From NCBI GenBank assembly GCA_965222075.1, contig OZ244937.1, positions 3,392,001 to 3,456,000 of the forward strand: a stretch of DNA of 64,000 bases. The letters are read 5' to 3'. Source of the DNA: Candidatus Latescibacterota bacterium. GTDB taxonomy: Bacteria > Latescibacterota > UBA2968 > GCA-2709665. The notes under the pieces were generated by a model. It was not told the DNA's origin and searched no databases. It saw nothing but the letters and a program-made list of their open reading frames with translations. The translations under genes were made by a program, and so were the position numbers. Shown here in pieces: positions 13,163 through 64,000 of the stretch (position 1 is the first letter of the stretch; each line of letters starts with the position of its first letter).

Positions 13163-13239
13163 GTGCTTGTGGTGACTACTGCCATCGCAACAACACAGAC
13201 CCACAACCCCTTCCAGCCCTTCCCATGCCTTCGGCGAGG

Positions 13240-13507
13240 CCTTTTTCTTGCACGCCCAAGAAAAAGGCCCAAAAAGAAAGGCGCCTGCCTGCGCGGCGCA
13301 CCGCGCTGCAGGCAGGCCGCTCAAACGCCGCGGGGGCTGCTTTTCCGCGAATTGCCCCTCTGGTCGATACCTGAGTTTGTGCCCTGCGAGCGCTGGGGAA
13401 TTCACAAGGCGAAGGCGCTGGACGGAACCGCGCGGAAAAGCCCCTTCACCCCCCACCGAACGCGCAGGCAGGCGCGAAGACCGGTGGGGGTTTTAAGACA
13501 GCTTCTT
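13240..13507 (+). repeat. dispersed ~200-260 bp repeat family B, copy 1
   Basis: shares GGGGGCTGCTTTTCCGCGAA...GCGGAAAAGCCCCTTCACCCC blocks with 39340-39530 and 52354-52590 (both inverted). Confidence 0.8.
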
Positions 13508-21626: not shown

Positions 21627-21659
21627 CCTGCCTGCCGCGCGGGGCCTGGCGCAGGCAGG
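21627..21659. repeat. CCTGCCTG...CAGGCAGG palindromic micro-element
   Basis: 33 bp with the same termini as 13284-13316; flanked by A and T. Confidence 0.75.
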
Positions 21660-29923: not shown

Positions 29924-30250
29924 TGGAGTTACCCCGGGTTTTGTGGACGGTTTTAAGCTTGGGTGTCAAGCCCATGCCTGGTGTTTTTCCTCGTAGGTTG
30001 TGGGTGAGTCGTACCCCAAAGCTGAACGTCTGCGATGTGGATTATACTACCCCTCGATATACGCGAAGAGTGCCTGGAGAGCGACCCGCTCGTACCAACG
30101 CCACCATCTGCTGCCTGTCTGCGTGCCACGCACAGGCAGGCCGAAACTCCGGCGGATAGAGAGGATGCGTCTGAGACGTGATGAACCTCCTTTCTCCTCT
30201 CAAGATAACAAGAAAAGATGGGTGTCCACCAAATCATCGGGGCAAGTCCA
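29924..30250 (-). mobile_element. internally deleted IS3-family element
   Basis: TG...CA ends with ~25 bp imperfect IRs; orfA start MSQTHPLYPPEFRQQMVALVRAGR once the 27 bp insert 30114-30140 is removed. Confidence 0.8.
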
Positions 30251-46438: not shown

Positions 46439-46540
46439 GACAATCGAGCCGAAAGGGTGGAGGGATGCCGATCTGAAAGACGCTCAGACCGTGTTGAAAG
46501 ATGGGATCATCTTGCCGGATTACGATTGGAGGTCTGGAGC

Positions 46541-48007: not shown

Positions 48008-48074
48008 TGAATAGGCCTGCTTTTCAACTGGAAGTGGTCGATGATCGATTTCTGCAGGAAAGGAGGTCGAGACG

Positions 48075-49655: not shown

Positions 49656-49712
49656 CGTCGGATGGGTTCTGACCGTGAGCGGAAGCGCCTGTTCAACCCG
49701 GGAGAATACCCA

Positions 49713-50924
49713 ATGAGCAAGCCGGATATCTACCAGCGCACGATGATTGACGTGCTGACGCCCCAGTTGAAGAAACGCGTCAAGGACCACTTTACCATGC
49801 ACCAGTTCGCCATCTGCGGCTGCACGCGCGAGGATGGGTTCGCCGGGCAGGGGGTCGTGCCGCTGTATGAAATGGAACGGCACTACGTTTTCAAGACTTC
49901 CACCGATCTGGGGACCTACAACCATCACCCGAACCTCGTCAAGTGGAAGGGCGAGTATTGGTTTGCCTGGGACAACTGCATGGTCAACGAGGAATGGCCG
50001 GGACAGCGGACGTTCATTTCGCATTCGACCGATGGTGTGGCGTGGTCCGAGCGCATCCTCGTGGCCGACGGGGATGAGAAGAGAGGGATGCTGCGCAATC
50101 TCGGCGGGGTCTACGCGCGCGGCAACACGCTCTACGCGTTCATCCAGGAGAAGTGGGACCTGGCCCATGCTACGGATCCCGAGATGAGCGTTCACGACAA
50201 CACGAAGGTGTCGGTCCGCAACGATCTCTGGGCAAGCAGGGACGGCAAGAATTGGGAACTGCTGAAACAGAACTACGTGGATGTGCGCTGGATGTTCGAG
50301 AACCCGAGGCTGACCAACGGTGGACGTCTGATGGGGCCGATCACGGACCACGACGGAGCGCCCGGTGTCGCGCTGTGGCCCGGTGACGATCCCGAAGAGA
50401 CGCCGGAGGTGATCCACCAGCCCTGGCACGGCAACAGGGACGACTACTTCGCCGGCCACGACGAAGGCCGGTTTATCTACGGCGAGGCGACCTGGTACAC
50501 CGATGACGAGAATCGCATCTGGATGTACTGGCGCGACGAGAGCGGGTCCACGTACCTCGGTCTGACGCTCTCCGAGGACGGGGGCGGGACGTGGACCGAG
50601 GTGATGCGCACGAACTTCCCCGATTCAAAATCGCGCACCTTTGCGGGACGCCTCTACGACGGGCGCTTTTTCCAGGTCGGTAACTCGACCCGTGTCTACA
50701 TGGACCGCAATTTCTTCGCGCTGAGCCTCTCCGACGACGGCGCCAGGTTCAGCAAGATGTACCAGCTCATCAAAGAACCCGCCTACCAGCGTTTCCAGGG
50801 GCATCTGAAGGCCCACGGCTACCAGTATCCAAGCTGCGTGGTAGATGGCCACAGGCTTTTGATCGGTTACTCGGTCAACAAGGAGGACATCGCGGTCGGG
50901 ATCGTGGATACAACAGAGATTTGA
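49713..50924 (+). CDS. sialidase-like BNR/Asp-box beta-propeller protein
   Basis: STDGVAW, SRDGKNW, SEDGGGTW, SDDG Asp-boxes; YQYP, YSVNKE. Confidence 0.88.
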   Translation: MSKPDIYQRTMIDVLTPQLKKRVKDHFTMHQFAICGCTREDGFAGQGVVPLYEMERHYVFKTSTDLGTYNHHPNLVKWKGEYWFAWDNCMVNEEWPGQRTFISHSTDGVAWSERILVADGDEKRGMLRNLGGVYARGNTLYAFIQEKWDLAHATDPEMSVHDNTKVSVRNDLWASRDGKNWELLKQNYVDVRWMFENPRLTNGGRLMGPITDHDGAPGVALWPGDDPEETPEVIHQPWHGNRDDYFAGHDEGRFIYGEATWYTDDENRIWMYWRDESGSTYLGLTLSEDGGGTWTEVMRTNFPDSKSRTFAGRLYDGRFFQVGNSTRVYMDRNFFALSLSDDGARFSKMYQLIKEPAYQRFQGHLKAHGYQYPSCVVDGHRLLIGYSVNKEDIAVGIVDTTEI

Positions 50925-51005
50925 AGCATGGTCCAATTCACAGGTACAGGGGCCTGTCTGCGAAGGACGAACAGGAGGAGGCAATGAATCGAAAGGAGAG
51001 GACCG

Positions 51006-52355
51006 ATGGCCCGGTTGCAATTCGGCATGGCCGTTCGTGACATTACACCCCGCTACCCGGTCTGGGCGCACGGGTACTCCGCACGTACGCGCAAGTCCTC
51101 CGGCGTGCGGGAACCGCTGTCTGTGGGATGTCTGGCCGTTACCAACGGCCAGACCCGGGTGCTGATTTTTGCGCTGGACATGATCGGCGTTCGGGCCGAT
51201 GTGTGCGACGAGCTGTATGCGCTGCTGGAGAAGGAGACGGGTGTGGGCTACCCCAATATCCTGATCTCGGGGTCGCACACGCACTTTGCCCCGGCGCTGC
51301 ACGGGACGGCCTTCGCCGATCCGGCGATTGCCTTTGTGGATCGCGACGAGAAGTATGTGAATGGGGTAAAGACCCGGCTCGTGGAGGCGGCCGGGGAGGC
51401 TCTGGCCGACGCGCGCGCCATGCGCCTTGAGACGGCCCGGATTCAGGTGCCTCAGGTGGTGTACAACCGGCGAACGGTGCGAAGGTCGGACGGCATGGTG
51501 CAGATGAACCTGATGTACCCGGAAAACCCCTCTCCGTACACGTTCAGCCCGGTGGATTCCGAACTGACGGTTCATCGTCTGGTGGACGAGAGGGGGGTGC
51601 ACGGCGTGCTGATGAACTTCGGCTGTCATCCGGTCACAGGGTGCTGGCCCGACGAGGACAACTACAAATTCTCAGCCGACTATCCGTACCACGCACGGCA
51701 AACCATTTCCGAAAAATGGCATTGCCCGGTGCTGTTCACACTGGGCGCCGCCGGAGACGCCGTGCCGATCAATCGCCGCGACGACTGCAGGGAACGCATC
51801 GGCAGTGTGCTGGGAAACGCGGCGGTGCTGGCAGAGCGCACGTTTCAGGCCGATCCCTCCACCGACCTGAATGCCGATACGGTAGAAGTGGAGGCCGAGA
51901 CGATTCTGAAGACGCACCCGTCCAGGGCCGAGGCCGAGTACGAAGCGGCGAGGCAGGCGGTTCTTGCGGTAGAAGACAGGAAGGGTGAACAATTTCGCGA
52001 ACGCAATGAGGCGTTCACGCAGAAGTTGCGGGATTGCGGACGGGCCCGCCTCTATCCCGAAAACAGGTGGCGAATCAGGGTTCAGTTCGTCCGGATCGGG
52101 AAGACGACGCTGGTGGGTCTGCCGTTCGAGGTGCTGGCCGAGATCGGCCTCAGGATGAAGGAACGCTTTCCGGACAGCGTTCTGGTGTCCTGCTGCGGAG
52201 GCTACCAGGCCTACCTGCCCCTTGCCTACGAATACGACCGCGTGGGCTATGAAGCCACGGCGTCTTCAACGCATTTCGTACCGGGCACGGGCGACCGGGT
52301 ACTTGAGGCCATTCTGGAGCGGCTTGAAAAGAAGACCATCCCGGGGAGCTTATGA
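51006..52355 (+). CDS. neutral/alkaline ceramidase-like metallohydrolase
   Basis: DITP, SHTHFAP, NRR, NFGCHP, SADYP, GAAGD, YE. Confidence 0.85.
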   Translation: MARLQFGMAVRDITPRYPVWAHGYSARTRKSSGVREPLSVGCLAVTNGQTRVLIFALDMIGVRADVCDELYALLEKETGVGYPNILISGSHTHFAPALHGTAFADPAIAFVDRDEKYVNGVKTRLVEAAGEALADARAMRLETARIQVPQVVYNRRTVRRSDGMVQMNLMYPENPSPYTFSPVDSELTVHRLVDERGVHGVLMNFGCHPVTGCWPDEDNYKFSADYPYHARQTISEKWHCPVLFTLGAAGDAVPINRRDDCRERIGSVLGNAAVLAERTFQADPSTDLNADTVEVEAETILKTHPSRAEAEYEAARQAVLAVEDRKGEQFRERNEAFTQKLRDCGRARLYPENRWRIRVQFVRIGKTTLVGLPFEVLAEIGLRMKERFPDSVLVSCCGGYQAYLPLAYEYDRVGYEATASSTHFVPGTGDRVLEAILERLEKKTIPGSL

Positions 52356-52590
52356 GAAGCTGTTTTAAAATTCCCGGTGAGTTCCCCAGCGCGAGCGAAA
52401 AAGTATCGGTCTCGCCTCCTCCACCTTCGTTGCGGAGTGGTGGGGCTTTTCTGCGCGGTTCCGTTCACCGCCTTCGCCCAGAAACGCCCCAAAGGTCCGC
52501 AGGGCAGACCTGCCTGTGCCGTGCCCGGCACGGCAGACAGGAGCTTCCGTTTCCACCCCAGGGGCAATTTGCGGAAAAGCAGCCGCTTAA
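52354..52590 (-). repeat. dispersed repeat family B, copy 3, with a 33-bp insert at 52509-52541
   Basis: shares blocks and the AGAAGCTGTYTTAAAA terminus with copy 1. Confidence 0.7.
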
Positions 52591-52668
52591 ACCCAAGAAA
52601 CACAACAAGTTCTGTTACAATCTGAAAGCCTATTTTCCAAGTAGCAGCTTCATAAAAAGGGGGATCCG

Positions 52669-53595
52669 ATGTCGATGGCATCTCAGAGCGCAGTGGTCGA
52701 GAAGCTGGATGGGGAAGATGGATCTGTTGAACTTCCCTGCCGGGTGCTGGGCAAGACGGGCGAGCGCGTGCCGATCCTGGGGTACGGCACAGCGCCTGGC
52801 GGTATGGGGTTGAGCGATGAAGAGGCGATTGCGCTGATTCACAGGGCGATTGACCTGGGAGTTACCTGTATGGACACGGCACCGGGGTACGGACGAGCGC
52901 ATGTGCAGCTGGGGACGGTGATGGCAGAGCGGCGTGAGGAGGTCTTTCTGGTGACCAAGACGGGTGCGGATGATGCGGAAAAGGCGCTGGAGATCCTGGA
53001 GCAGAGTCTGAAAGATCTGCAGACCGAGCAGGTGGATCTGACCTACGTCCACTCCCTGGGCAACCGGGATGTGGACCGGGTGCTGGCTGTGGATGGGTCT
53101 CTGGCGGGCCTCCGAGAGGCGCAGCGGCGAGGGTGGACGCGTTATGTGGGGTTTTCGGCGCACAATACGCCCTGGAAGGCGGCCAGGGCGCTTGAGGAGG
53201 CGGATGTGGATGTGGTGATGCTGGCGATGAATCTTGCGGACCGGCACACGTACAATTTTGAAGAAGCGGTCCTGCCCCTGGCCCGCGAGCGTGGGGTGGG
53301 GGTGGTGGCGATGAAGGTCTACGGCGGGGCGCTGGAGATGAAATACGACCGTCCGACCCCTTCGGCGCTGGCAGCACACGGCGCACACGACCACCAGGCT
53401 GCCCTGAATTATGCGCTGGGCCTGCCGGGGGTGGCAACGGCGGTTGTGGGGGTGTATACCGGGGCGGAGTTGATCCAGAACCTCGAATGGGCTCGAAATC
53501 ACACGCCCCTGTTCGCTGAAGCGGAAGCCGGGCTGGAGAAGCTGGGCAGGGAGATTGCCGCCGACTGGGGGGCGCACTACGGCTCGGTACGATAG
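52669..53595 (+). CDS. aldo/keto reductase
   Basis: LGKTG, DTAPGYG, FLVTK, SLKDLQTEQVDL, AMKVYGG. Confidence 0.93.
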   Translation: MSMASQSAVVEKLDGEDGSVELPCRVLGKTGERVPILGYGTAPGGMGLSDEEAIALIHRAIDLGVTCMDTAPGYGRAHVQLGTVMAERREEVFLVTKTGADDAEKALEILEQSLKDLQTEQVDLTYVHSLGNRDVDRVLAVDGSLAGLREAQRRGWTRYVGFSAHNTPWKAARALEEADVDVVMLAMNLADRHTYNFEEAVLPLARERGVGVVAMKVYGGALEMKYDRPTPSALAAHGAHDHQAALNYALGLPGVATAVVGVYTGAELIQNLEWARNHTPLFAEAEAGLEKLGREIAADWGAHYGSVR

Positions 53596-53648
53596 AAGCT
53601 GCTGCTTCGGAGTGTAAGTGCTGCTCAACTTTCGTAGTAACACATTCT

Positions 53649-54089
53649 TCAGCAGCAACTTCTCAGAGATTCGGCGCTCCATCGCTCTTTCGGTGGATAC
53701 CACCGTCCCTGACCGAGCAACTGGTCTACCACCGCCGCAAATTCTGCTGTCATGGCTTCTCGGAAGATGCGAGATTTCCTCACGGATCGGCTGACTCCTC
53801 CCGGGTACTTTCGCCAGGTCGCAGGGGCATCCCGCTGTACGCCCTCCATCTCCAGCCGACGCCAGATCGTTGATTCCATCTCTGCGGCGTCTTCGGCCGT
53901 AAACGCGCGCACCTTGACGTAGCCCCGGGTGCAGAGCTGCTCAAGGTCCTGTTCGTTCAGTGGTCCGTCAGTCGGCGATGTGTTATTTGTCTCTGAGCGA
54001 AAGGATTCCAAATACTTCCCCCGGACACCAGGACCGAGATCTCCACGGCGATATCCTGGACGCAGCTCGTCTGGATCAGCCTTCTTCAT
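53649..54089 (-). pseudogene. chimera of a BrnA-like antitoxin N-terminus (copy of 60590-60686) and a PhyH-like dioxygenase fragment
   Basis: first ~33 aa nearly identical to ORF 60459-60686; then LNEQDLEQ..RGYVKV...W...VDQLLG. Confidence 0.7.
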
Positions 54090-54142
54090 AGATTCTCCTG
54101 TTGACGTCCACTGCCTGTAGCGCCTTGGCAGACGGCGTTGTC

Positions 54143-54397
54143 TTACAAAGACTGCAGCATGGCTTCAGCTCCGATTTCCGCTCGCTCTACCTCGTAACCT
54201 GCCGATTTCACATTTGCGATGGCTGAACGAATAGCTGCTTCCAGGGAGTCCCCCTCTCGGTGAAAATCAATCGAGAACACACCGTTGCAGATCCCTGGTG
54301 TTCCATCGTCACAACCGGCCTCGAACAATTCGTCTGCAATCTCTTCGGTCAGCTCGAATTGTCCTTTGAGAATCAAGGTAAAACCATATTTGGTCAT
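54143..54397 (-). CDS. small acidic protein, probable antitoxin (HicB-like)
   Basis: LFEAGCDD...FHREGDSLEAAIRSAI; follows a HicA-like gene. Confidence 0.75.
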   Translation of the reverse strand: MTKYGFTLILKGQFELTEEIADELFEAGCDDGTPGICNGVFSIDFHREGDSLEAAIRSAIANVKSAGYEVERAEIGAEAMLQSL

Positions 54398-54423
54398 TGG
54401 GCTTAACCTTTCCAATTTACAGT

Positions 54424-54654
54424 CTACAACATGTGATGCGGGCAACGGTCAATAGCCCGACGGATGTCTTTGGCATGGTCTTCAGGACTCTTTGGGGTTG
54501 AGTATACAGCTCTCGCACAGCCAGTCTGATCGCTCAGTGGGCAATACAAGCGGCCCCAGGTGTGGGCACGTGGTCCCGCTTTCCGAACCGTCCAGCCATG
54601 GTCTAATGCGTAAGCAATGGCTGCACGAATATGCTTATTGGGATGATCTGACAC
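54424..54654 (-). CDS. HicA-like small basic protein, probable toxin
   Basis: HPNKHIRAAI..A...GW, HTWG.LYC, STPK. Confidence 0.75.
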   Translation of the reverse strand: MSDHPNKHIRAAIAYALDHGWTVRKAGPRAHTWGRLYCPLSDQTGCARAVYSTPKSPEDHAKDIRRAIDRCPHHML

Positions 54655-54746
54655 TGGATTCTTATAACGTCATTTATGTTTTGGCTTGATTTCTTCGTGC
54701 GCGATTTGTTGAAGTGGGGTCTGAGAGCTTTTTTTGCGCCAGTTTT

Positions 54747-54829
54747 GCATAACGTTTCTCCGGTTTGCGAACCGCGCAGCGGTTGCGCGGAGGGGCGGAT
54801 GCCCCGTAGCCGGGGGCACGGTGTTACAG
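54747..54829 (-). other. attC site
   Basis: GCATAAC...GTTACAG, family consensus. Confidence 0.8.
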
Positions 54830-54900
54830 GATGTGCCAGTTCAGGATATTGGGCTCCCAGCTTGCTACGGACGGCAAGACCGCTACATAAAAGATACCAC

Positions 54901-55614
54901 TCAGTTTCGATCTATCCCTAATATTGCAGGTAGGTCAGCCAATGAAGTAATTTCGTGGTCAGCTTTGATCTCAGTGTCGTTCATCAGACCTTCACGATTC
55001 AGCCAGACCGCATGCGCTCCGGCCTCACGCGCTCCGGCAACATCGTTTTCCAGGGAATCCCCCACGTGTAATAGCTGCTCCAGCGGACAGCACGCCCTCC
55101 GTGCGGTGATCTGGAAGATGCGTCGATCGGGCTTCTCAACACGCACATCCTGGGAAAGGACAGCAAAGACAAACCGGCCCTCAAGCCCACAGCGGTCGGG
55201 GTAACTATTCCCATTGGACAAAAGTCCGATCTTGAAATGAGGCGCTAGAATGTCAAGAGCAGGCAAGACATCCTGATACAACTCAATATCTTCGAAACGA
55301 TGCTTCAGATATATCTCATTCAAATGAACAGCCAGACTGCGGTCCTCACAGCCAACGCGTTCAAGCGTCCTCTCAAATGCAAGTCGTCTGATCTCCTCAA
55401 GATTCCAGGTCTTGCCCTTCACTTCCTCGGCAAGCCGATTGCGAATCACAATCATTTCGTCCACCGTAAGGGCCACAGCTCGCTCTGCCGGAACGTGCCT
55501 ACGCAGTTCCACTAACGTGTGCTTTAGTGAATGTCTCATGACCTTCTGAAAATCCCACAAAGTCATGTCGCCATCAAAAGAGATCGCTGAAATTCGCAAG
55601 GTACTCGCCTCCAC
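54901..55614 (-). CDS. HAD family hydrolase (cassette)
   Basis: FDGDMTLWD, LSNGN, KPD, HVGDSLENDVAGA; start uncertain. Confidence 0.9.
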   Translation of the reverse strand: MEASTLRISAISFDGDMTLWDFQKVMRHSLKHTLVELRRHVPAERAVALTVDEMIVIRNRLAEEVKGKTWNLEEIRRLAFERTLERVGCEDRSLAVHLNEIYLKHRFEDIELYQDVLPALDILAPHFKIGLLSNGNSYPDRCGLEGRFVFAVLSQDVRVEKPDRRIFQITARRACCPLEQLLHVGDSLENDVAGAREAGAHAVWLNREGLMNDTEIKADHEITSLADLPAILGIDRN

Positions 55615-55683
55615 TAAATGGACAAAGATGCCTCGGCGTATGATGACGACGGTTCTGCCGCTTCCAGAGCTGGGTGGCACTTC

Positions 55684-55804
55684 CTATAACGTTTCGCCGA
55701 TTCGCGAACCCCGAGCTCGGCCGCTGAGCCTGTCGAAGCGTGTCGAAGGGTTGCCCTTAGGGCCAAGGCGCGAATGCGCCGCAGCGCAAAACGTGATGTT
55801 AACT
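55684..55804 (-). other. attC site with nested insert
   Basis: CTATAAC...GTTAACT. Confidence 0.82.
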
Positions 55805-55849
55805 GCTGGCGACCCTTTTTTAGGAAATCCTTCAGTATGCATAGGATCG

Positions 55850-56281
55850 TCAGCTTTCCATTAGGGCTTGTTTGACCCGGTCTGCATATGAATCCAATTC
55901 CTCATCAGGGATACGATCTAGCCACCGTGGATAAACTCTCAATAAACCATCGTCTACTTTTCTAGGATGGATATGAAAATGCACGTGGGGGACTTCCTGG
56001 TGAGCACCTGGCCCATTGCTCTGCCATATGCTTAATCCGTCTAGCTCGAAGGCTTTTCTGACGGTTCGAGAAAGTAAGATCATAGCTTTCATAATCTCAG
56101 ATCCTGTTTCCTCTGACAGGGCATAGATGTCTGGAAAGTGCTCTTTGGGAATGACCAGAATATGCCCAGGGTTTGCTTGCCTTGGATCTATCAGCGCGAT
56201 GACAGAATCCGACTCGTATACCACCCTCGCACTCTTAGTTCCCTCCACGATTTCACAGAAGACACATCTTGATTCATCCAT
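55850..56281 (-). CDS. HIT family protein (cassette)
   Basis: CVFC, GHILVIPKEH, NG..AHQEVPHVHFHIHPR. Confidence 0.94.
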   Translation of the reverse strand: MDESRCVFCEIVEGTKSARVVYESDSVIALIDPRQANPGHILVIPKEHFPDIYALSEETGSEIMKAMILLSRTVRKAFELDGLSIWQSNGPGAHQEVPHVHFHIHPRKVDDGLLRVYPRWLDRIPDEELDSYADRVKQALMES

Positions 56282-56377
56282 ACATCCTTCACCTTGCTTT
56301 GTGCAAGAGATATAATGACGTACGAAAAGGCTCTCCGCGGTAATGGGTGTGTGCTATTCTTTGGTTTTTTCGCTTGC

Positions 56378-56471
56378 AGTTAACGTTCTGGCCACTTGCG
56401 AACCCGCGCAGCGGGTTGCCGAATGGCCGGAGGGAGCGAACGCGCCGGAGCCGCAGCCCGTCGTGTTATGT
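56378..56471 (-). other. attC site
   Basis: AGTTAAC...GTTATGT. Confidence 0.82.
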
Positions 56472-56487
56472 GTAGTTGCAGTCCCGG

Positions 56488-57333
56488 TTATCGCCGGCCT
56501 TGCCATGCATGGCAAGGCCGGAAATGGGCTGATACCTCAAACTTCAATCTGGCTTTCTTCCTGCGAAATGCTAAAGCAGTTTCGTAGTGCTTGGTGATCG
56601 ATCCTCCGTAGTTCTTGTTTATCAGGTCAGCGATACCATCAAATAGGTGCGTGCGATTGAATTCGGGCAGCGCGATGTGGTCAGAATAGGTGCCAATGAG
56701 TTTGATGTACTGTTCCGCAGAATAGTTCGCTGTCCACGCGTACACTCGGTGGATAGGATCGGCAAAAGCGGTAGTTCCGGGTTCTGGGGACTCTGATGTC
56801 GTCGGAGTACTGGGATCCCGAGGGGAATCTGAAACTACATAATGCTTGCTATAAACTTCCTGGACTTCCGCAAAGAAACCTTCGTGTTTTCTTACGTGTT
56901 GGTTGGAGAAGATGGCCAATGATCCCCTGGCCTTCAGGGTGTCACGGGCTTTAATGAATCTGACTCTTGGACTCACCCAGTGGAATGCAGTCGCGGAGAT
57001 CACAAGGTCAAACTTGCTAGCCGAGTCCCAATCTTCGAAAGGACACAGGACGAAGCAAACGTTCTTGTAGTTGTTGAGTCGCGCCCTCGCAACCTCGATC
57101 AAATCTTGGCCAATATCCAAACAGGTCATTTCGCAACCGATGGTGGCAAATAATCTCGAAGCCTGTCCGGTTCCACACCCGACTTCCAGGATTTTTCCGC
57201 TTCTATCCATTCCGGAGAGGTCCAAAACATCCCTGACAAGCTCATCAGGGTATCCGGGCCTCACTTCGTCATAGAGCGAGGCAACGGTATTGAAAGTGGT
57301 TTTGAGATCAGGGCGGGGCATTAGAATTCCCAT
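56488..57333 (-). CDS. class I SAM-dependent methyltransferase (cassette)
   Basis: YDEVRPGYP, LEVGCGTGQ, SATAFHWV. Confidence 0.92.
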   Translation of the reverse strand: MGILMPRPDLKTTFNTVASLYDEVRPGYPDELVRDVLDLSGMDRSGKILEVGCGTGQASRLFATIGCEMTCLDIGQDLIEVARARLNNYKNVCFVLCPFEDWDSASKFDLVISATAFHWVSPRVRFIKARDTLKARGSLAIFSNQHVRKHEGFFAEVQEVYSKHYVVSDSPRDPSTPTTSESPEPGTTAFADPIHRVYAWTANYSAEQYIKLIGTYSDHIALPEFNRTHLFDGIADLINKNYGGSITKHYETALAFRRKKARLKFEVSAHFRPCHAWQGRR

Positions 57334-57383
57334 GATTTGGGTTTAGGCGGCGCAGGGAGGCGTCGCTCTGGGACTACAATTGC

Positions 57384-57468
57384 ACATAACGTCCCGGCTG
57401 TTCCTGAACCGTGTAGCAGTTGGGTCAGAAGGAGCCAAGCGACTGGAGCCAGGAACAGCCTGTTATGT
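57384..57468 (-). other. attC site
   Basis: ACATAAC...GTTATGT with GGCTGTTCCTG/CAGGAACAGCC stem. Confidence 0.85.
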
Positions 57469-57534
57469 GTCTGTAGCAGTTTGCGATCGGAAAAGCGATA
57501 GAGAGGCGACCATCACCCTTCTGTTTTGTGTCTT

Positions 57535-58080
57535 TCAGGGTTTTACAGCCTGAGCAAAGAACAGACTCTGAGAATAATCGTCATACACCTTCCACTTAAA
57601 GATTTCAAAACCTGCTGTCTCGACTTCCTGAACCAGACTCTCTGGCAAGCCCCAGAAACGCGTTGCGATTCCATTCTCTATTTTGCATCGGGTCACAGGA
57701 TCAAACGGATAATCTGCATTCTTTGGCTCACCACATTTTGTCATGACGATGAATAACCCCTGAGACTTCAGTACACGATGCACATTCTTCAAGAATGCAA
57801 TGCGATCTTCGCCGATGATACAATGTAGGCAAAGGGCGTCTATGATCACGTCGAAAAACCCATCCTCATACGGCAAATCGAGGACGTTCCCAACTCGGAA
57901 ATCCGCTCTCAAATTCTGTTCCTCACCCTTTTCCTCTGCCCAAGCAATCGCCGTCGGAGAGATATCGATTCCATAGGCTTGAAAGCCCTTCTCCGAAAGG
58001 AGCAAAGAAAGATCGCCGGCACCACATCCTAACTCAAGCAAAGTTCCCGATTCCAACTCCAACTCTCGCAATACATTGGT
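57535..58080 (-). pseudogene. class I methyltransferase (cassette), 5' end disrupted by an IS4 remnant
   Basis: LLELGCGAG, GIDISPTAI, CLHCIIG; N-terminus replaced by transposase sequence. Confidence 0.8.
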
Positions 58081-58870
58081 CACTTTGCCGAAGTTCCAGG
58101 TCGTCCGACCTGCCTGTGCGTTGCACGCACGCAGACAGGTCAAGCGAGATGGTGAAGTCACACTTGACTGGCAACAGACCTGCCTGTGCGTTGCACGCAC
58201 GCAGACAGGTGCAAGATCAAGTCGACCACCAGATCATAGGGCAGATGAAATCCACTGAAGAAACGTTGAATCCTGCGATAGTTGGACTTCTGCTTGGCTT
58301 TGCCGTTGAGAACGTTGGCCAGTTTGCTGAAGTTCACTGTTGTCAGTTTGATGAGGGATAGGATGAACGCGCTGACCTGCCTGTGCGTTACCGCACGCTT
58401 GCCTGCGCGCAGCGCGTCTGCCTGTGCCGAAGGCAGACAGGCAAGCAGGCAGACAGGTGAATTTCACTCGGGCTTTATGCCAGAGAAAATGCCATTGCAT
58501 TACCTCTTGCAATTGGTTAACTTGGGGAGACATGGACCTGTGCCTTTCTTATGAATGAGTGGTTGGATTGTGGCCAACCCAAACCTAACTCATTTCATCT
58601 AAAAACGCAGGTCTTTTCTATTGAGTGTGTAGGAAATCGCGGGCGCTTTGAAAGGGCCTTCAGACAGCATAAATGCCTGCTCGACATTTCCCAAATCCCA
58701 TTTTGGCCCCTGAGGCTGCTCATTGAGACCAAACATCGAGGATACTTTAAATGTTTGGCCTGAAAAGCAAGAAAATTCACGATAACAAATTTCGTAAGTG
58801 ATTTTTTTTCAGACTGTTATTTCGCCTGTAAAATCCTACACACTCTTTTCTATTTTGTCGTGTACCTTGA
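58081..58870 (-). mobile_element. truncated IS4-family element with three palindromic inserts in the transposase
   Basis: removing the inserts restores HKARVKFISAFIL...SNYRRIQRFF...ISLDRTTWNFGK; probable end CAAGGTACACGACAAAA near 58870. Confidence 0.8.
58109..58457. repeat. CCTG...CAGG palindromic micro-elements: 58109-58139 and 58179-58209 (identical 31 bp) and nested 58376-58457
   Basis: CCTGCCTGTGCGTTGCACGCACGCAGACAGG, each inserted at GA^T. Confidence 0.9.
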
Positions 58871-58901
58871 TCCGGTCCATAAATCCCAAAACTGCCATGG
58901 C

Positions 58902-59006
58902 ACATAACGTTCTGGCCACTTGCGAACCCGCCGAGCACAGCGAAGGTGGGTTGCCGCTAGGCCGAAGGGAGCGAATGCGACCGAAGCGCAAGTGGACGTG
59001 TTACAC
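58902..59006 (-). other. attC site
   Basis: ACATAAC...GTTACAC with CCACTTGCG/CGCAAGTGG stem. Confidence 0.85.
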
Positions 59007-59067
59007 GCCGGCGCCTTGATAGCGAAGCTCATTTGGCGCAGGAGTTGCGCACCCGGCATCTCGCCAA

Positions 59068-59772
59068 TCAATCCCCAGCCAGCAGGAATCCGATCCGCCA
59101 TCTACCTTTGAGATACTCGAACTGGGCACGGTAGCCGATGGGGCTTCTACAATCTGAGGCCAAAACGTAACCAGAAACTCCATCCAAGGTCGTGACCCTC
59201 TTCCATTCTCTTCCGGCCTTGTCTCGCGGATTCGGCTCGTTCACATCTTTGACGATTTCGTAGCTCAGAGTATCAATTGCCGCTGAACTTAGGCTCATCT
59301 CGGGCCGCAGTGGAGCAGCCTCTGACTTGATAGCCGAATAGAAATAGGCGTCGTAAGCGTCTGGCCATCGAGAAAAGAAGTATGGAATTATGAAAACTGT
59401 GCAGCTGTCATTCTCACACGTCGCGCCAAGTGCCAGCAATTCCTCTAGGGTGCTCCACAACCTAGACTTCTTTGGCTTCGATCTCAGGTTCCAGTAATCG
59501 AGAAACCCTTCCCTTCCGAATCGTCCTCCGTAACTAACGTGAATATCTGGTTTCAGATGATCTAGGACAAAATCGAGGTCTTTCCGCTCAACGGCTGAGG
59601 CCAACTCTGAGCGAAAGTTACCGAAGGAGTCGCTGAGATAAGTTTCGTCAATCGGTAGCAGTCGAGTAACACCCGTACCTGCCAGGAGACTCAAGGGTAG
59701 GGCTATAACCAGGAACGTAGCTCTGAGTATCATGTCAAATCGTTGGTGCGAAGGTAGTTGGTTTGTCTTCAT
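59068..59772 (-). CDS. exported protein with C-terminal SH3b-like domain (cassette)
   Basis: signal-like hydrophobic stretch; W..V.T.DG..GYV...RSPIGYRA. Confidence 0.8.
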   Translation of the reverse strand: MKTNQLPSHQRFDMILRATFLVIALPLSLLAGTGVTRLLPIDETYLSDSFGNFRSELASAVERKDLDFVLDHLKPDIHVSYGGRFGREGFLDYWNLRSKPKKSRLWSTLEELLALGATCENDSCTVFIIPYFFSRWPDAYDAYFYSAIKSEAAPLRPEMSLSSAAIDTLSYEIVKDVNEPNPRDKAGREWKRVTTLDGVSGYVLASDCRSPIGYRAQFEYLKGRWRIGFLLAGD

Positions 59773-59807
59773 ACACCTGTCGGGTGCCTCCGACTTCCGA
59801 CGCTGGC

Positions 59808-59889
59808 GTGTAACGTTTCAGTGCCCCCGAACCGCGAAGCGGTTGGGCGAAGGGCCGAATGGCCCGAAGCCGGGGGCACAATGTTAGGC
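59808..59889 (-). other. attC site
   Basis: GTGTAAC...GTTAGGC with GTGCCCCCG/CGGGGGCAC stem. Confidence 0.85.
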
Positions 59890-59899
59890 GAAGTCTCCG

Positions 59900-60328
59900 T
59901 TACTGAAAGCGGACCACGCATTTGTATCGTTGAACACCCGGATATTTCTCGCCGAGAGGTTCTATTTCAAATCCACATGATCTGTAGAAGCCAACGGCAT
60001 CGTCGTCAGTTTCTGCCTCTAACTGGCCAAACCTCAGATCGTCACGAACGAACGCAATCAGTCTCCGTCCTATGCCTACACCCCTCCATTCAGGATGAAC
60101 GGCGATGTGGGTGATGATACACCGGCTTCGATCGGATGAATCCAAACGTACGATTCCAACGGGCGCGTCCTCGCATCTGGCAACCCATAACGTCGTGAGG
60201 GAGTTCGAAGTGCAAGACTGCATGAGCTCTCCAATAGCAGCCTCTGTGGGTGCACCAACGGACTCGGCAAGAATACTCGCCACATCCTTTGCGTCCGACT
60301 CATCAGCATGAAAACGATGGATCTGCAT
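59900..60328 (-). CDS. GNAT acetyltransferase (cassette)
   Basis: IAVHPEWRGVGIGR, ETDDDAVGFYRSCGF. Confidence 0.92.
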   Translation of the reverse strand: MQIHRFHADESDAKDVASILAESVGAPTEAAIGELMQSCTSNSLTTLWVARCEDAPVGIVRLDSSDRSRCIITHIAVHPEWRGVGIGRRLIAFVRDDLRFGQLEAETDDDAVGFYRSCGFEIEPLGEKYPGVQRYKCVVRFQ

Positions 60329-60340
60329 CTTGGAAATGTC

Positions 60341-60430
60341 GCCTAACGTCTCATGATTTGCGAACTCGCGAAGCGGGTTGCCGAAGGCCAAGGCGCGATC
60401 AGCGCCGCAGCGCAAATCGCTGTGTTACAG
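60341..60430 (-). other. attC site
   Basis: GCCTAAC...GTTACAG with GATTTGCG/CGCAAATC stem. Confidence 0.85.
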
Positions 60431-60458
60431 GAAGAGAGAAAGATACAGCCTGTGTATG

Positions 60459-60686
60459 TCAACTGGTGCTCTTGGTAGAGTCCTCCGGTCCCTCTGCCGC
60501 GTCCATAAACGACCGAAGAGCATTGTTTACGGCCTCGTCCGTGGGAAATGCCTTCGCAACGTCTGGGTGGAGTAGAACCAAATTTGTCCCTGAGCAAAAG
60601 GATTCCAAATACTTACCCCGGACACCAGGACCGAGATCTCCACGGCGATATTCTGGACGCAGTTCGTCTGGATCAGCCTTCTTCAT
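60459..60686 (-). CDS. BrnA-like antitoxin
   Basis: DELRPEY...GVRGKY...LHPDVAKAFPTDEAVNNALR; overlaps brnT. Confidence 0.85.
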   Translation of the reverse strand: MKKADPDELRPEYRRGDLGPGVRGKYLESFCSGTNLVLLHPDVAKAFPTDEAVNNALRSFMDAAEGPEDSTKSTS

Positions 60687-60945
60687 AGATCCTCCTTTCC
60701 TGACGCGTCATTAAACGTGCACTGATTATTCTCGTCTTTCCGGCTCGTTGGGTATGCAAGATGACTACCAATCGATTCAATCTCGACAGGCCAAAAGTAA
60801 GATATCGTTCTTCATCCACCGAGTGATCGGGATCGGGGAAGGTTATTGCCAGCGGGTCCCCAAAAACAGTGGCCCCTTCGTGAAAACTGAGGTCGTGTTT
60901 TCGCTCGTTCGCTTTGGCTTTTTCTGAATCCCATTCAAATTCCAT
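60673..60945 (-). CDS. brnT: BrnT family toxin
   Basis: FEWDSEKAKANERKH..F, DPDHS..EER, RIISAR. Confidence 0.93.
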   Translation of the reverse strand: MEFEWDSEKAKANERKHDLSFHEGATVFGDPLAITFPDPDHSVDEERYLTFGLSRLNRLVVILHTQRAGKTRIISARLMTRQERRIYEEG

Positions 60946-61026
60946 CAGTTGACGGCTTCCTCATCAATAACAGTAGCCCCAGTGTTTTATTATCCCACAG
61001 CAAAAGCGATTCTCTGTTCTCTTTTC

Positions 61027-61101
61027 CTGTAACGTCTGCCGGTTTGCAAACCTGCGAAGCGGGTTGCCAGAAGGGCCAAGGCGCGAAACGTGCTGTTATG
61101 G
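61027..61101 (-). other. attC site, partly deleted
   Basis: CTGTAAC...GTTATGG. Confidence 0.75.
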
Positions 61102-61156
61102 GCCGTGGCACGCAATAGCCTCATCGAAAGTTCATGAGGTGGTGGGTAACACGTCT

Positions 61157-61366
61157 CTAATCATGTAAGATCTCACCCGCCAATGGAGGGCGTACTGCTG
61201 AATCTTCCAGAGTCAGAACCGCAATGGTGGTGCCCTGAGTATCCACGAACTCTACCTCCGACGCCTCGTCGTCCGCATATCTATGTACCACTGTGCCCAC
61301 ATCTCCGGCCACCAGACCGTGCTCTACAATCGACTCCTTGAGAACCACCAGATCCAATTCAGCCAT
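61157..61366 (-). CDS. DUF4926-like small protein
   Basis: ELDLVVL...GL..GDVGTVV...EVEF...G.T.AV.TL; AAGGAGG RBS. Confidence 0.85.
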   Translation of the reverse strand: MAELDLVVLKESIVEHGLVAGDVGTVVHRYADDEASEVEFVDTQGTTIAVLTLEDSAVRPPLAGEILHD

Positions 61367-61381
61367 TTCAATCCTCCTTGA

Positions 61382-61714
61382 TCAAGCTGGATAGGCTGTC
61401 ACCAGACGAGGCCTATCTGAACCAGGTTCAACAATCCAGACCGTCCGAATCCGAACACTCGAACCCGATGGGGTTTTCACACGACCATCCAAAATATACT
61501 TGGTGCCATGACGTGTCTGTATAACTTCGGAGACCTGCTCATTGCGCGCAATGGATGCTAAATCAGCTTTGAGGACAGAGGGGTCCTCCTGCCCATACCC
61601 AACACCACGGAAGAATCTCGCCTTTGCTCGACCTACGGCATGTATATCGGAAAGCAGATATTGCTCGACTTTCTCAGTAGGTATCGCCACATTTATTCCG
61701 TTAGGCAACTTCAT
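61382..61714 (-). CDS. DUF6883-like putative toxin/nuclease
   Basis: MKLPN...YLL...H..G..KARFF...HGTKY...TVWI...PRLVTAYP. Confidence 0.85.
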   Translation of the reverse strand: MKLPNGINVAIPTEKVEQYLLSDIHAVGRAKARFFRGVGYGQEDPSVLKADLASIARNEQVSEVIQTRHGTKYILDGRVKTPSGSSVRIRTVWIVEPGSDRPRLVTAYPA

Positions 61715-61757
61715 AGAATCAGTATTTGTGAATCAGATCCAATTTTCACGCCAGGGC

Positions 61758-61850
61758 CCATAACATTTCGCCGGTTTGCGAACCTGCGAAGCAGGTTGCC
61801 CGAAGGGCCAAGCTGCCGCAGGCGGCGCAGCGCAAACCGCTGTGTTCTGG
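61758..61850 (-). other. attC site
   Basis: CCATAAC...GTTCTGG with GGTTTGCG/CGCAAACC stem. Confidence 0.82.
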
Positions 61851-62030
61851 GAAATTGGAATCCACTTGAAAATATGTCTAAATTCCTGCGCAATAAGTGT
61901 CAAGGCGTTGAACCGTGGCTATCGCGATATGCTGCCCAACTACGGTTTCATCGTCATTCCTGCCCCTCAGGCTATGCATAAGGGCGTCTGCGCAATCACT
62001 TGTTTGGTGACAAAACCGGAAAAACAAACA

Positions 62031-62984
62031 TCAAAACTGGACAACAAAATCAATGTACGGCACACCGGGGAAAAATGCTTCCTCTCCTATCATATTGATA
62101 AGCGCGAGGTCTACACTCAATCGTCTGCCAAAGAATCGCAGTCCATAAGAGATCAAGGTCTCGTCTACACCCGGAAAGATCCAGTTTTCCGAAACAAATG
62201 CTATCCGTCGAGTCAAGCGTTTCTCTCCGCCAACCATCACCATAGGATGATCTGCTAAATCTCGGTCGACAAAGCCATAACCGAGTCCTGCAGTCAGGCT
62301 TGCATCGGGTTGCCCAAACGTTATTACACCATACAATATGCCCACAACTGAGTACTCATCAGGGACACGCACAAGAAGCGCGCCCACGGAAAACTGAACG
62401 GGATCTTCTTGTACTAAACCAAATTTTGGCGCGAAAAAAAAGAGTTGCTCATCCATATCTACGCCGGGAAAGATAGAAACCCCACCTCCCAGTGTAAAAC
62501 GATCAGTTACCCCATAAGCAAATCCTGGAAAAAAGAGATAATAATCGGAAAAATAACCTCTGCCCTGTTCCAGCATACGCGCCGTAGGTGCAAAGAACAG
62601 GCGCGTTGTATTGGGATTTTTAAACCAGATCTCACCATCGTGTATCGAAGTAACAGGTACTGTTTCAATGTGTTTAATCTTTGAAATGGGAATGTGGATT
62701 ATGCCCAGGTCCGTCTCAAATGCAATCTCTTCATCACCAATCTGCACGATGCGTCCGACATTTGTCGATGCATCCATTGTCTCAATCACCTGAATATGAT
62801 TAGAATCGGGAATTGCCAACTGGGCCATTAGGCATGCGCTTTTAAGTTGCGTATCCTTCGCACGTTCTTCTGCAAAGGCAATACTCATGGCGTCCAGAGA
62901 AATCGTAGTCCAGGTGGAGAACAAGAGTAACCATAGCATCCGTGTGCCAACTACAGGGGTATCGATGCATACTTTAGGTACCAT
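62031..62984 (-). CDS. exported, probable outer-membrane beta-barrel hypothetical protein (cassette)
   Basis: signal-like N-terminus; NPNTTRLFFAPTAR; amphipathic strands; C-terminal Phe. Confidence 0.8.
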   Translation of the reverse strand: MVPKVCIDTPVVGTRMLWLLLFSTWTTISLDAMSIAFAEERAKDTQLKSACLMAQLAIPDSNHIQVIETMDASTNVGRIVQIGDEEIAFETDLGIIHIPISKIKHIETVPVTSIHDGEIWFKNPNTTRLFFAPTARMLEQGRGYFSDYYLFFPGFAYGVTDRFTLGGGVSIFPGVDMDEQLFFFAPKFGLVQEDPVQFSVGALLVRVPDEYSVVGILYGVITFGQPDASLTAGLGYGFVDRDLADHPMVMVGGEKRLTRRIAFVSENWIFPGVDETLISYGLRFFGRRLSVDLALINMIGEEAFFPGVPYIDFVVQF

Positions 62985-63029
62985 GAGATCTCATTCTTTC
63001 GAGAATACTGATGGCCGTTCTCCAATTTC

Positions 63030-63171
63030 CCATAACGTCTGACGGTTTGCGAACCCCGAGCTCGGTCGCTGAGCCTGAACCCTGAGCCTGTCGAAGGGTG
63101 TCGAAGCGTGTCGAGGGGTTGCCGAAGGCCAAGGCGCGAATGCGCCGTAGCGCAACACCGTGCTGTTAGAC
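63030..63171 (-). other. attC site with doubly nested insert
   Basis: CCATAAC...GTTAGAC. Confidence 0.82.
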
Positions 63172-63188
63172 GATCGCGGCGACCAACC

Positions 63189-63524
63189 TTATTCGCAGTT
63201 CTGCCTCTCGAAATTTCGAACAACCATTCCCACACACTCCGTGAAACCTTGCTTAACGTAGAAATCAGACACATCTCGGTCGCACACAAGGTCAATCATG
63301 TAAAAATGCCCAAACTCCTTGAGCATTCGCCTGACAAGCTCAGCTCCAATGCCCATACCATGGTAGTCGGGCAGTACACCGAGGTGAGGAATATATGCAC
63401 AGGACACACCATCCGAGATGGCAGAAATCCAACCGACGACCTCTCCTTCTGGCGAAATAGCCAGAACAAAGAAATCGCTGCCCTGCAAAATTCTAAGATG
63501 CGCCTCTGGGGAGGGAGGATTAGG
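63189..63524 (-). pseudogene. GNAT acetyltransferase cassette gene, 5' end cut by the IS
   Basis: PNPPSPEAHLRILQGS...AISDG..AYI..L.VLPDY.G.GIG; frame runs into the IS end. Confidence 0.8.
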
Positions 63525-64000
63525 CCTTAAATAAGCGAGTTCCTTAAATAAGCGAGGTTTTGTTGTTTGCTGAACAGAAAGGCCATTTTGTGTTACGATT
63601 TGGTTGATAGAAGTATCCGTGCTGCCTAATATGGTGCGCGGGAGGTCGTTCTGGCGTTTGTTGAGTGTTTGTTGGAGTGGTAAAGCGAACCGTTATTTGT
63701 CGGGTGGGCGTATTTGTCCGTTGCGTCGCCGTGGGCGTCGTGGGTCCCCTGGTACAAGGTCACGGTTCGTGCCGGTGTCAGGTGAAGCCGGTTCGTTCGA
63801 TGGTAGCCCAAGCGCTCAAGAGTCTTTTCAGGGATGGCTGATAGCCGATGATGCGCACCCTCGTGCTTCGGGCGTGTCGCACGACACGACAGGGAAACAG
63901 GATGATGTGTGTGAGGAAGGTCCGAAAGTCCATACGGATATATTGTCGGCGATGGTTTTTTTGATGCATCATCAGGGCAAACCACGACTTGATGTTCCAG
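63525..64000 (-). mobile_element. IS1380-family element, 3' end (continues beyond window)
   Basis: terminal CCTTAAATAAGCGAG present twice; transposase C-terminus. Confidence 0.75.
63778..64000 (-). CDS. IS1380-family transposase C-terminus (partial)
   Basis: WNIKSWFALMM...MDFRTFL..II..PCRVVRHAR...RIIGY. Confidence 0.75.
   Translation of the reverse strand, partial: WNIKSWFALMMHQKNHRRQYIRMDFRTFLTHIILFPCRVVRHARSTRVRIIGYQPSLKRLLSAWATIERTGFT

Follow-up and report, generated by a model that had tools for sequence, protein, structure and literature searches.

Short GC-rich hairpins with the termini CCTGYCTG and CAGRCAGG are scattered through a 64-kb stretch of the genome of a Candidatus Latescibacterota bacterium, hereafter the window (the whole stretch analysed, positions 3392001-3456000 of the single-contig genome G000; 5,360,005 bases, 59.3% G+C), and these CCTGYCTG...CAGRCAGG units probably constitute a family of very small non-autonomous mobile elements, moved by an enzyme that acts in trans and cuts and rejoins one DNA strand. 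That the hairpins are a real mobile element is very likely. A strand-specific, HUH-like chemistry is a serious possibility that falls short of probable, and it is doubtful that the genome's own homologue of a repetitive extragenic palindromic (REP)-associated tyrosine transposase (RAYT) is itself the mobiliser. With regard to type, the units are orphan nano-elements that are REP-like or resemble the small dispersed repeats (SDRs) of cyanobacteria.

REP-like repeats have usually been taken as lineage-specific, extragenic and tied to a resident RAYT. The hairpin described here is shorter than 40 nt. Its filled and empty sites agree to the base, its choice of target follows a rule that can be measured, and its copies nest in one another; no cognate transposase is visible. 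Its distribution across phyla and in phages, together with the base-exact evidence of insertion, is the new content of this work; searches of PubMed Central and bioRxiv, with subscription journals and supplements outside the scope, led to papers on REP, REPIN and HIP1 but to no description of this family or of any cross-phylum REP-like element, and papers containing one of four 10-12-nt end strings look unrelated (primers, microRNAs) among the matches listed. The element offers a tractable system for how orphan REP- or SDR-type repeats move, with a defined, synthesisable substrate (CCGA^hairpin^T, the caret marking the junction), and genomes with 0-292 copies are suited to gene-association work. 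In addition, proteins such as PurL and UvrA gain 9-12 residues from the hairpins, whose copies also break short-read assemblies.

Exact junctions and empty sites

The pattern CCTGYCTG-N(5-25)-CAGRCAGG matches six times in the window and not once in 100 dinucleotide-preserving shuffles of it. An earlier note on the window had placed units at seven coordinates, and the sequences that it gave are present at all seven; the seventh, an 82-nt composite, is missed by the pattern because the first bases are altered in two of its layers. Three of the seven lie in the 5' fragment of an insertion sequence (IS) of the IS4 family (DDE_Tnp_1), at 58070..58631 on the minus strand, where the end near 58070 is, on our reading, the point at which similarity to the reference copy stops. 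The reference was obtained with a 54-residue translation from between the units, which gave 95 matches in the related genome G004; the copy taken, L008, is intact and has a 372-codon open reading frame (ORF) with a DDE_Tnp_1 domain.

The first of the three units is a 31-nt hairpin, CCTGCCTG...CAGACAGG, on the plus strand at 58109..58139, inserted at CCGA^T with joints colinear with L008 1459|1460. An identical 31-nt unit lies 39 nt downstream at 58179..58209 (plus strand, CAGA^T, L008 1498|1499), and the 82-nt composite, a nest three units deep, occupies 58376..58457 (plus strand, CTGA^T, L008 1664|1665). Window positions 58060-58108, 58140-58178, 58210-58375 and 58458-58618 align to L008 1411-1459, 1460-1498, 1499-1664 and 1665-1823, respectively. 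When the three units are deleted, the IS is restored to the base, with flanks neither duplicated nor lost, and all three junctions read GA^T. The nest parses exactly as had been described before, into an outer 30-mer (58376-58397 and 58450-58457), a middle 27-mer (58398-58416 and 58442-58449) and an inner 25-mer (58417-58441), the middle and inner layers each lying at a G^C of the host layer, 8 nt before its 3' end. The only sister fragment of this IS in G000 (2932240-2932611) is not empty; it carries the same nest minus 23 nt internally, a deletion that spans two layers, and nests therefore also decay by internal deletion. On the minus strand, the 5' part of the transposase is joined in frame, via a hairpin unit, to an S-adenosylmethionine (SAM)-methyltransferase ORF (57535-58107) that lacks its own start region, the joined frame running over 57535-58631.

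A second set of empty sites is provided by repeat B, which is dispersed over the genome in some 45-50 copies of ~240 nt; the hairpins often land in it, and spurious ORFs run through it. In the window, a 33-nt unit at 13284..13316 (plus strand) is inserted at G^C in a repeat-B copy (13238-13477), and another 33-nt unit, at 52509..52541 (plus strand), lies at CAGA^A in another repeat-B-related copy; many paralogous copies cross both junctions without the element. In an alignment of 43 full copies plus the search query, itself one of the 43 minus its 33-mer, the first site holds a plain 33-mer in 12 copies and a 33-mer with further nested units in 2 more, while two other sites are filled in 1 and 5 copies.

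Exact removal had earlier been claimed to restore the host at six sites, and this holds for five of them, three against L008 and two against empty repeat-B paralogs. The sixth is a 27-nt unit at 30114..30140 (plus strand), inserted at G^C in the remnant of a transposase-like ORF, where it adds nine codons in frame (PPEFR[PACAWHADR]QQMV); no empty counterpart was found for it, the sole paralog in the genome (2697834) being filled as well. The label IS3 orfA once given to this remnant is unverified, as Pfam gives the fragment no match. Likewise, no empty paralog was found in the genome for the remaining unit of the window, a 33-mer at 21627..21659 (plus strand, CCTA^T).

The genome-wide search proposed in the earlier note, run with the termini CCTGYCTG/CAGRCAGG and a 3-30-nt interior, returned 248 matches in the 5.36-Mb genome. 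The joined flanks of 65 of the 248 have a contiguous, junction-spanning match elsewhere, and 19 do so under strict limits (at least 20 nt on each side, with 10 nt on each side perfect). The cleanest case is an ISLre2-family (UPF0236) copy at 3463714-3465240 with three units that are absent from its paralog, the flanks being 98.75-100% identical over 80 nt. Filled and empty sites can also be compared between genomes. In PurL of G000, a 33-mer and a degenerate 21-mer (54 nt, 18 residues) occupy a loop in which the congener G001 has neither, the remainder being colinear; the degenerate 21-mer means that counts based on exact termini underestimate the hairpin family. No target-site duplication is present at any verified site, in agreement with the insertion without duplication that had been proposed, and the earlier description of a very small, non-autonomous element is supported too.

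Public sequencing runs were consulted as well, and four runs from four studies, of 20 covering part of 51000-60000, were aligned to 44001-64000; all contigs end in or near repeats. Among the joints listed, there is a single exact skip, 52508->52542 (33 nt, run X10, 3 contigs, side 31), which lies in the multi-copy repeat B and may come from empty paralogs, and there is no skip at the three IS4-frame sites. The check for empty alleles in reads that the earlier note had called for was thus carried out on contigs only and yielded this one skip. Nothing specific, beyond the breakage of public-run contigs at repeats, suggests that slippage during replication, gene conversion or faulty assembly at GC-rich palindromes gave rise to the units. 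Such a non-mobile origin is hardly credible, because identical units recur at unrelated sites and their boundaries are exact, orthologous sites are filled in one genome and empty in another, the reading frame is under selection, and near-identical sequences turn up in viral contigs and in assemblies of many phyla from short as well as long reads.

Copy number, size and structure

The 248 matches are 19-46 nt long, with modal sizes of 33 and 27 nt; the main size classes are 33 nt (93), 27 nt (50), 30 nt (19), 25 nt (17), 36 nt (13) and 19 nt (8). Removal of 19 matches that contain another terminal motif, nests being counted twice, leaves 229 simple copies, which represent 113 distinct sequences. 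Single units measure 19-36 nt and nested composites up to 82 nt. The reversed pattern, used as a control, gives no match in G000 and 0-2 matches in 38 of 40 other genomes of the same order that were searched. In G117, of the same class, the reversed pattern GGACRGAC...GTCYGTCC has 55 matches per strand vs 0-2 in most genomes, which suggests that this genome has another family of hairpin repeats.

Each unit is a GC-rich hairpin. The 8-nt inverted termini are conserved across subfamilies while the inner stem and loop vary freely, as had been seen in the few copies of the window. The inner parts pair better than shuffled sequences (5.07 vs 3.74 pairs; -11.3 vs -8.8 kcal/mol), and for 42 of 43 asymmetric variants the more stable strand is the one in which mismatches turn into G-T(U) wobbles. 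In a search of Rfam, the hairpins match no family.

This preference for the G-U strand, the many copies in transcribed contexts within ORFs, and the analogy to SDRs speak for an RNA intermediate of the sort proposed for cyanobacterial SDRs. Movement through RNA nevertheless carries a small probability. Single-stranded DNA hairpins tolerate G-T wobbles too, and junctions that are exact, polar and placed at a defined flank motif agree with strand transfer of DNA; moreover, no reverse transcriptase is linked to the hairpins, although no search aimed at reverse transcriptases was made.

Target choice, polarity and nesting

The bases that flank the 229 simple copies are G^C in 80, A^T in 59, G^T in 21, A^C in 21 and others in 48. 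The insertion rule is purine^pyrimidine (R^Y), with self-complementary steps preferred. Complementarity of the flanks does not extend beyond one base in G000. Insertion at the centres of palindromes, as several cross-phylum loci seemed to show, was considered as a general rule and rejected, contiguous flank complementarity in G000 not exceeding chance past the first base.

Copies at the self-complementary steps G^C or A^T number 139 of 229, as a symmetric blunt cut predicts, and the 8-nt termini are the sole part conserved across subfamilies. In this light, the units might be minimal MITEs (miniature transposable elements with inverted repeats) of a double-strand transposase, DDE or other, with 8-bp inverted termini and blunt integration at G^C/A^T. 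The probability of this is low, since the flank signal is strand-asymmetric and no longer element with these termini was found in G000 (26 candidate pairs, one inspected in sequence). In addition, DDE transposases normally leave target duplications, and there are none at the verified sites.

The asymmetry of the flanks can be measured because unlike termini (CCTGCCTG...CAGACAGG or the reverse complement) occur in 100 of the 229 simple units. After removal of copies with identical flanks (229 to 216), 93 asymmetric copies were left and oriented as CCTGCCTG..CAGACAGG. Position -4 is C in 74 of these 93, vs G at +4 in 33 of 93 (Fisher p = 1.5e-9), and the 5' flanks include CCGA^ (18), CAGA^ (9) and CCCA^ (6). 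Empty sites already contain CCGA, so this motif belongs to the target. In other genomes, among 120 listed matches in the same orientation, -1 is G in 86%, +1 is C in 51% and -4 is C in 33%. A constraint that affects a single strand, and that on one side, speaks for a strand-specific reaction and not for a symmetric double-strand one. With respect to the replichores, as inferred from GC skew, 60 of the 100 asymmetric copies are oriented in the favoured way, and the symmetric 33-mers have no bias.

Under the reading preferred here, an enzyme supplied in trans would cut a single DNA strand precisely at the two feet of the hairpin. The cuts would fall after C-N-N-R on the flank, typically CCGA^ in G000, and after CAGG on the element, and the ends would then be rejoined or exchanged by a chemistry such as that of HUH/Y1 transposases and other 5'-phosphotyrosine enzymes. 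Integration would thus take place 3' of a short flank motif, C-N-N-R^. The 3' end of the element itself, CAGG^, follows the C-N-N-R pattern of the flank motif too.

Self-targeting, which had been proposed from the window, is evident genome-wide: 22 of the 229 copies are nested in another unit, and since all units together make up ~0.13% of the genome by our arithmetic, this frequency indicates strong self-targeting. The nesting point lies 6-18 nt from the nearer end and is G^C in 13 of the 22; the distance of 8 nt, described earlier for the layers of the 82-nt nest, is not a rule and is found in just 4 of the 22. The related claim that the units accumulate in mobile DNA stands in part. The flank lies in repeated DNA for 103 of 229 copies vs 81 of 600 random points, but the units are not confined to mobile DNA, 29 of them being deep in strong ORFs.

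Copies inside genes

The position of units relative to genes was assessed with a crude gene map, based on codon-usage log-odds trained on ORFs of at least 500 codons, which comprises 3839 genes (85% coding). The 229 units divide into 98 within ORFs, 126 intergenic and 5 across an ORF end. The length is a multiple of three in 28 of the 29 units that lie at least 90 nt inside high-scoring ORFs vs 96 of the 131 units that are not wholly in an ORF; frame selection acts on units within genes. Host ORFs, of which seven were checked in Pfam, include a UvrA-like protein with two units, an AcrB-family transporter, PurL, a UvrD-like helicase with two units, a type I restriction R subunit, a molybdenum hydroxylase and a C25 peptidase.

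ORFs that recur beside the hairpins were considered as candidates for the mobiliser and rejected, the ORF families being either paralogous host genes or spurious repeat-B ORFs. A multi-copy ORF of 510-518 residues (L170 and L171, at genome 4162988-4164544 and 3028909-3030441; a further copy at 5238150-5239706; a fragment at 1872029) has no Pfam match and is interrupted by a hairpin in one copy; it is possibly an unclassified transposase.

Distribution across relatives, phyla and phages

Across the 41 genomes that were searched first, members of two families of one order, hairpin counts range from 0 to 292; one genus alone spans all of 0-292, and the second family has 0-133. The rest of the phylum (168 genomes) has traces only. 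G019 carries dozens of one 27-mer and one 36-mer, variants of its own, among 139 hairpins, and G024 has its own 30-, 31- and 20-mers in many identical copies, with 133 hairpins in all. Different 'master' variants have multiplied in different genomes, in lineage-specific bursts.

Beyond the phylum, a scan of one genome per species was made for one subfamily, CCTGCCTGTGCG-N(3-16)-CGCAGACAGG, which has 22 fixed bases. At least 120 loci were recovered, in metagenome-assembled genomes (MAGs) labelled as many phyla, the assignments being those of the MAG record titles. The labels among the matches listed include Latescibacterota, Thermodesulfobacteriota, Brocadiaceae/Kuenenia, Methylomirabilis, Zetaproteobacteria, Gallionellaceae, Verrucomicrobia/Kiritimatiellae/Lentisphaeria, Nitrospirota, Acidobacteriota, Anaerolineales, WOR-3, Bipolaricaulota, Firmicutes, Spirochaeta, Campylobacterota and Patescibacteria. 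Among the contigs are long ones of 273, 419 and 462 kb. The units there have unrelated flanks, often rich in AT, and nested copies are present too. Whole-genome counts in five such genomes are 21 (Kuenenia-labelled), 47 (Opitutales-labelled), 44 (Binatia-labelled; an unpublished genome, on which nothing rests), 1 and 1.

The same CCTGCCTGTGCG/CGCAGACAGG subfamily is present in viruses, at 34 loci on 26 IMG/VR contigs. Some viral copies lie in ORFs that match PHROGs, namely a major head-protease protein (L214) and a large terminase (L215), and phages are therefore targets and plausible vehicles. It is conceivable, albeit rather unlikely, that the hairpins are the smallest broadly distributed mobile DNA yet seen, which would do without a dedicated transposase by using a conserved host enzyme for cleaving and rejoining single strands, for example a type IA topoisomerase, in line with C-N-N-R before both junctions, or would depend on an unrecognised, widely shared mobiliser, be carried between phyla by phages, and leave 9-12-residue inserts in essential proteins.

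Search for the mobiliser

The mobiliser had been said not to lie in the window, and indeed no Y1 or RAYT gene is found there; the PF01797 or RAYT-like loci of G000 are at genome positions 2071937, 3018501 and 3242104. Two loci match PF01797, one an intact IS200-type TnpA and the other a broken copy with a 25-mer ~150 nt upstream. TnpA of IS200 was rejected as mobiliser: the end hairpins of the intact copy are unrelated to the units, and across 53 genomes PF01797 counts do not track hairpin counts, with Y1 matches/hairpins of 32/2 in G004, 68/1 in G038 and 0/139 in G019. G004 and G038 carry large IS loads.

Weak PF01797 matches in relatives led to the RAYT homologues. The homologue of G000 (3242104-3242871) is intact, with 255 residues and the HUH and Tyr motifs, and sits between two genes that were named from their translations, trpA and one that is DAHP-synthase-like. 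It matches NCBIfam NF047646, 'REP-associated tyrosine transposase' (E = 5e-15), and the family profile matches PDB 4ER8 (E = 1.4e-11). On both sides, it is flanked by GTAG-headed doublets, GTAGCRCAAAC..GTTTG, that have 7 copies genome-wide, and not by CCTG hairpins; the whole forms a classical RAYT unit (L197 1503-2933, genome 3241503-3242933). At the loci of five relatives, the RAYTs are flanked by CGAGGGCA..TGCCCTCG doublets or by GGTGGAGCAGACA..TGTCTGC. Each RAYT examined thus has its own REPs, and the defining REP/RAYT arrangement is therefore found for other repeats, not for CCTG hairpins. The RAYT homologue of G000 looks committed to its different, GTAG-headed REP.

The possibility that the hairpins are ordinary REPs, moved by a genome RAYT homologue in trans or by cross-recognition, has to be weighed against these loci. 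Besides the intact gene in G000, it draws on the family to which the window's genome belongs (f1, 22 genomes), in which a strong full-length RAYT-like match is present in 12 of 12 genomes with at least 16 hairpins and in 2 with fewer, while the 8 genomes without a strong match have at most 6 hairpins; these genomes are related and not independent, so the co-occurrence may reflect shared ancestry. Furthermore, the RAYT gene of G021 (L191) has a 33-mer 7 nt past its stop codon, and the REP of a 'type 2' RAYT, GGTGGAGCAGACATTCCTGTCTGC (G015 L196 1519-1684 and 2352-2516; G001 L195), contains the hairpin-terminus 9-mers CCTGTCTGC and GCAGACAGG. The two 9-mers are arranged inside-out in that REP, with the loop at the other end of the same helix, and their sharing may be chance or a clue to ancestry.

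On the opposite side, a CCTG hairpin stands beside a RAYT gene at one of eight relatives' loci scanned and not at G000's own, and the hairpins have no GT(A/G)G or CGTC head. G024, a single contig that is 97% complete, has 133 hairpins, and its best RAYT-like match is a 36-position fragment (E = 3.5e-5), whereas G015 and G014, with a RAYT, have 4 and 2 hairpins; in distant genomes, RAYT-like genes are equally common whether there is one hairpin or there are dozens (G169 has 12 matches and 1 hairpin). That the hairpins are ordinary REPs moved by a RAYT is accordingly unlikely. The earlier note had attributed the units to HUH (Y1/RAYT) transposition and had advised looking for a RAYT or IS200 gene flanked by them; the attribution is not borne out by the unrelated IS200 ends, the untracked PF01797 counts, the other REPs at RAYTs and the RAYT-less G024, nor is the flanked gene borne out by the loci scanned. 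An attempt to assign hairpin subfamilies to RAYT subtypes was abandoned, as counts of asymmetric classes gave no clean pattern.

RAYT-like matches also turned up in larger ORFs. L199 (G170:C3:357780-361331) is a type I restriction R subunit (HSDR_N, SWI2/SNF2, T1R_D3) with a RAYT-like Y1 domain between its nuclease and ATPase parts, and strong RAYT-like matches are present in ORFs of 1021-1441 residues in G002, G003, G020, G021 and G169.

A full-length element with the same termini was sought and rejected: the 26 candidate pairs in the G000 scan look like separate hairpins as listed, and the sole perfect 16-nt pair, the only one inspected in sequence, consists of two independent nested composites around a 4.8-kb region. 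No Y1 gene was found in five viral records of hairpin-carrying phages, one of them rated 100% complete.

With no cognate transposase found in the Y1/RAYT, longer-element and phage checks, the hairpins might be moved by a ubiquitous host enzyme that cuts single strands through a 5'-phosphotyrosine, for example a type IA topoisomerase. As no dedicated transposase would be needed, the same element would work in many phyla, and one subfamily does occur in MAGs labelled as many phyla and in phages. C is found at -4 at both junctions, in 74 of 93 left flanks and always in the element's 3' end CAGG^, and bacterial topoisomerase I prefers C at -4. This preference fits G000 and not the other phyla, where -4 is C in only a third of the matches listed, and the counts of 0-292 are spread among close relatives that presumably all have topoisomerase I. 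We know of no precedent, and a host enzyme of this kind is quite improbable as the mobiliser.

Further points bear against a single-strand enzyme in trans. The public runs, which offered contigs only, gave neither a clear empty allele nor direct evidence of current movement, and the elements could be linked to no enzyme. G000 and other genomes differ in the flank rule. Known Y1 transposases use a two-hairpin substrate, while the unit here is a single hairpin, and the replichore orientation bias is weak where a strong one is expected of IS200/IS605-type elements.

Comparison with known systems

The hairpins resemble the REPs of REP/RAYT (REPIN) systems in being GC-rich imperfect palindromes of 20-40 nt, with tens to hundreds of copies and G-T pairs in the stem. 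Intragenic REPs, stem G-T pairs and orphan CGTC REPs have already been published, as passages of PMC3733652 show, and the same passages describe both uvrA genes of O. terrae as carrying dual REP inserts, just as the UvrA-like ORF of G000 carries two hairpins. They differ from REPs in lacking the characteristic heads, the CCGA flank belonging to the target, and the hairpin unit is a singlet, not a doublet, with hairpins nesting in each other. According to a passage of Nunvar et al. (PMC2817692), a RAYT gene flanked by REPs is obligatory, and CCTG hairpins do not flank a RAYT in that manner at the loci examined. REPIN-RAYT systems are mostly inherited vertically, as stated in 10.1101/2022.05.22.493013, in contrast to near-identical hairpins across phyla and phages.

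There is also a likeness to the SDRs of heterocyst-forming cyanobacteria. SDR1-8, reportedly described by Elhai et al. in 2008, are said to be hairpins of 21-27 nt with compensatory changes, to be nested, and to have no known mobiliser. The CCTG units share with them a similar size, the hairpin, the nesting of copies in copies and the lack of a known mobiliser; the sequences are probably unrelated. SDRs are reportedly limited to one cyanobacterial subgroup, whereas CCTG hairpins occur in MAGs labelled as many non-cyanobacterial phyla, among the matches listed. In-frame copies in housekeeping and phage genes are documented for the CCTG hairpins, which marks another difference. SDRs are treated in a citing passage of PMC4390886.

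Rickettsia palindromic elements (RPEs) are described, in a passage of PMC3733652, as inserted in frame in ORFs that likely encode functional proteins. The in-frame hairpins in ORFs of G000 (28 of 29 being multiples of three) are a likeness to RPEs, and not a sign of membership. RPEs are ~100-150 bp, several times longer than the hairpins, and lineage-restricted, and neither nesting nor exact empty sites is a hallmark of theirs.

Elements of the IS200/IS605 type insert without target duplication, 3' of a short specific flank, and have hairpins on one strand. The CCTG units are similar in that they insert without duplication and at precise junctions; a polar 5' flank motif is seen as well, but it is degenerate and varies between genomes. 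In IS200/IS605 elements and palindrome-associated transposable elements (PATEs), whose length is tens to hundreds of nt, two subterminal hairpins are present that differ from each other; in contrast, the units consist of one hairpin whose feet are the ends, the hairpins of the resident TnpA copy are unrelated to it, and the replichore bias is weak. With classical MITEs, the units share the 8-nt inverted termini, and they differ in the absence of a target-site duplication at verified sites.

Other features of the window

Apart from the hairpins and their hosts, the window contains a full-length transfer-messenger RNA (tmRNA) gene at 33700-34064 on the minus strand (Rfam RF00023, 205 bits).

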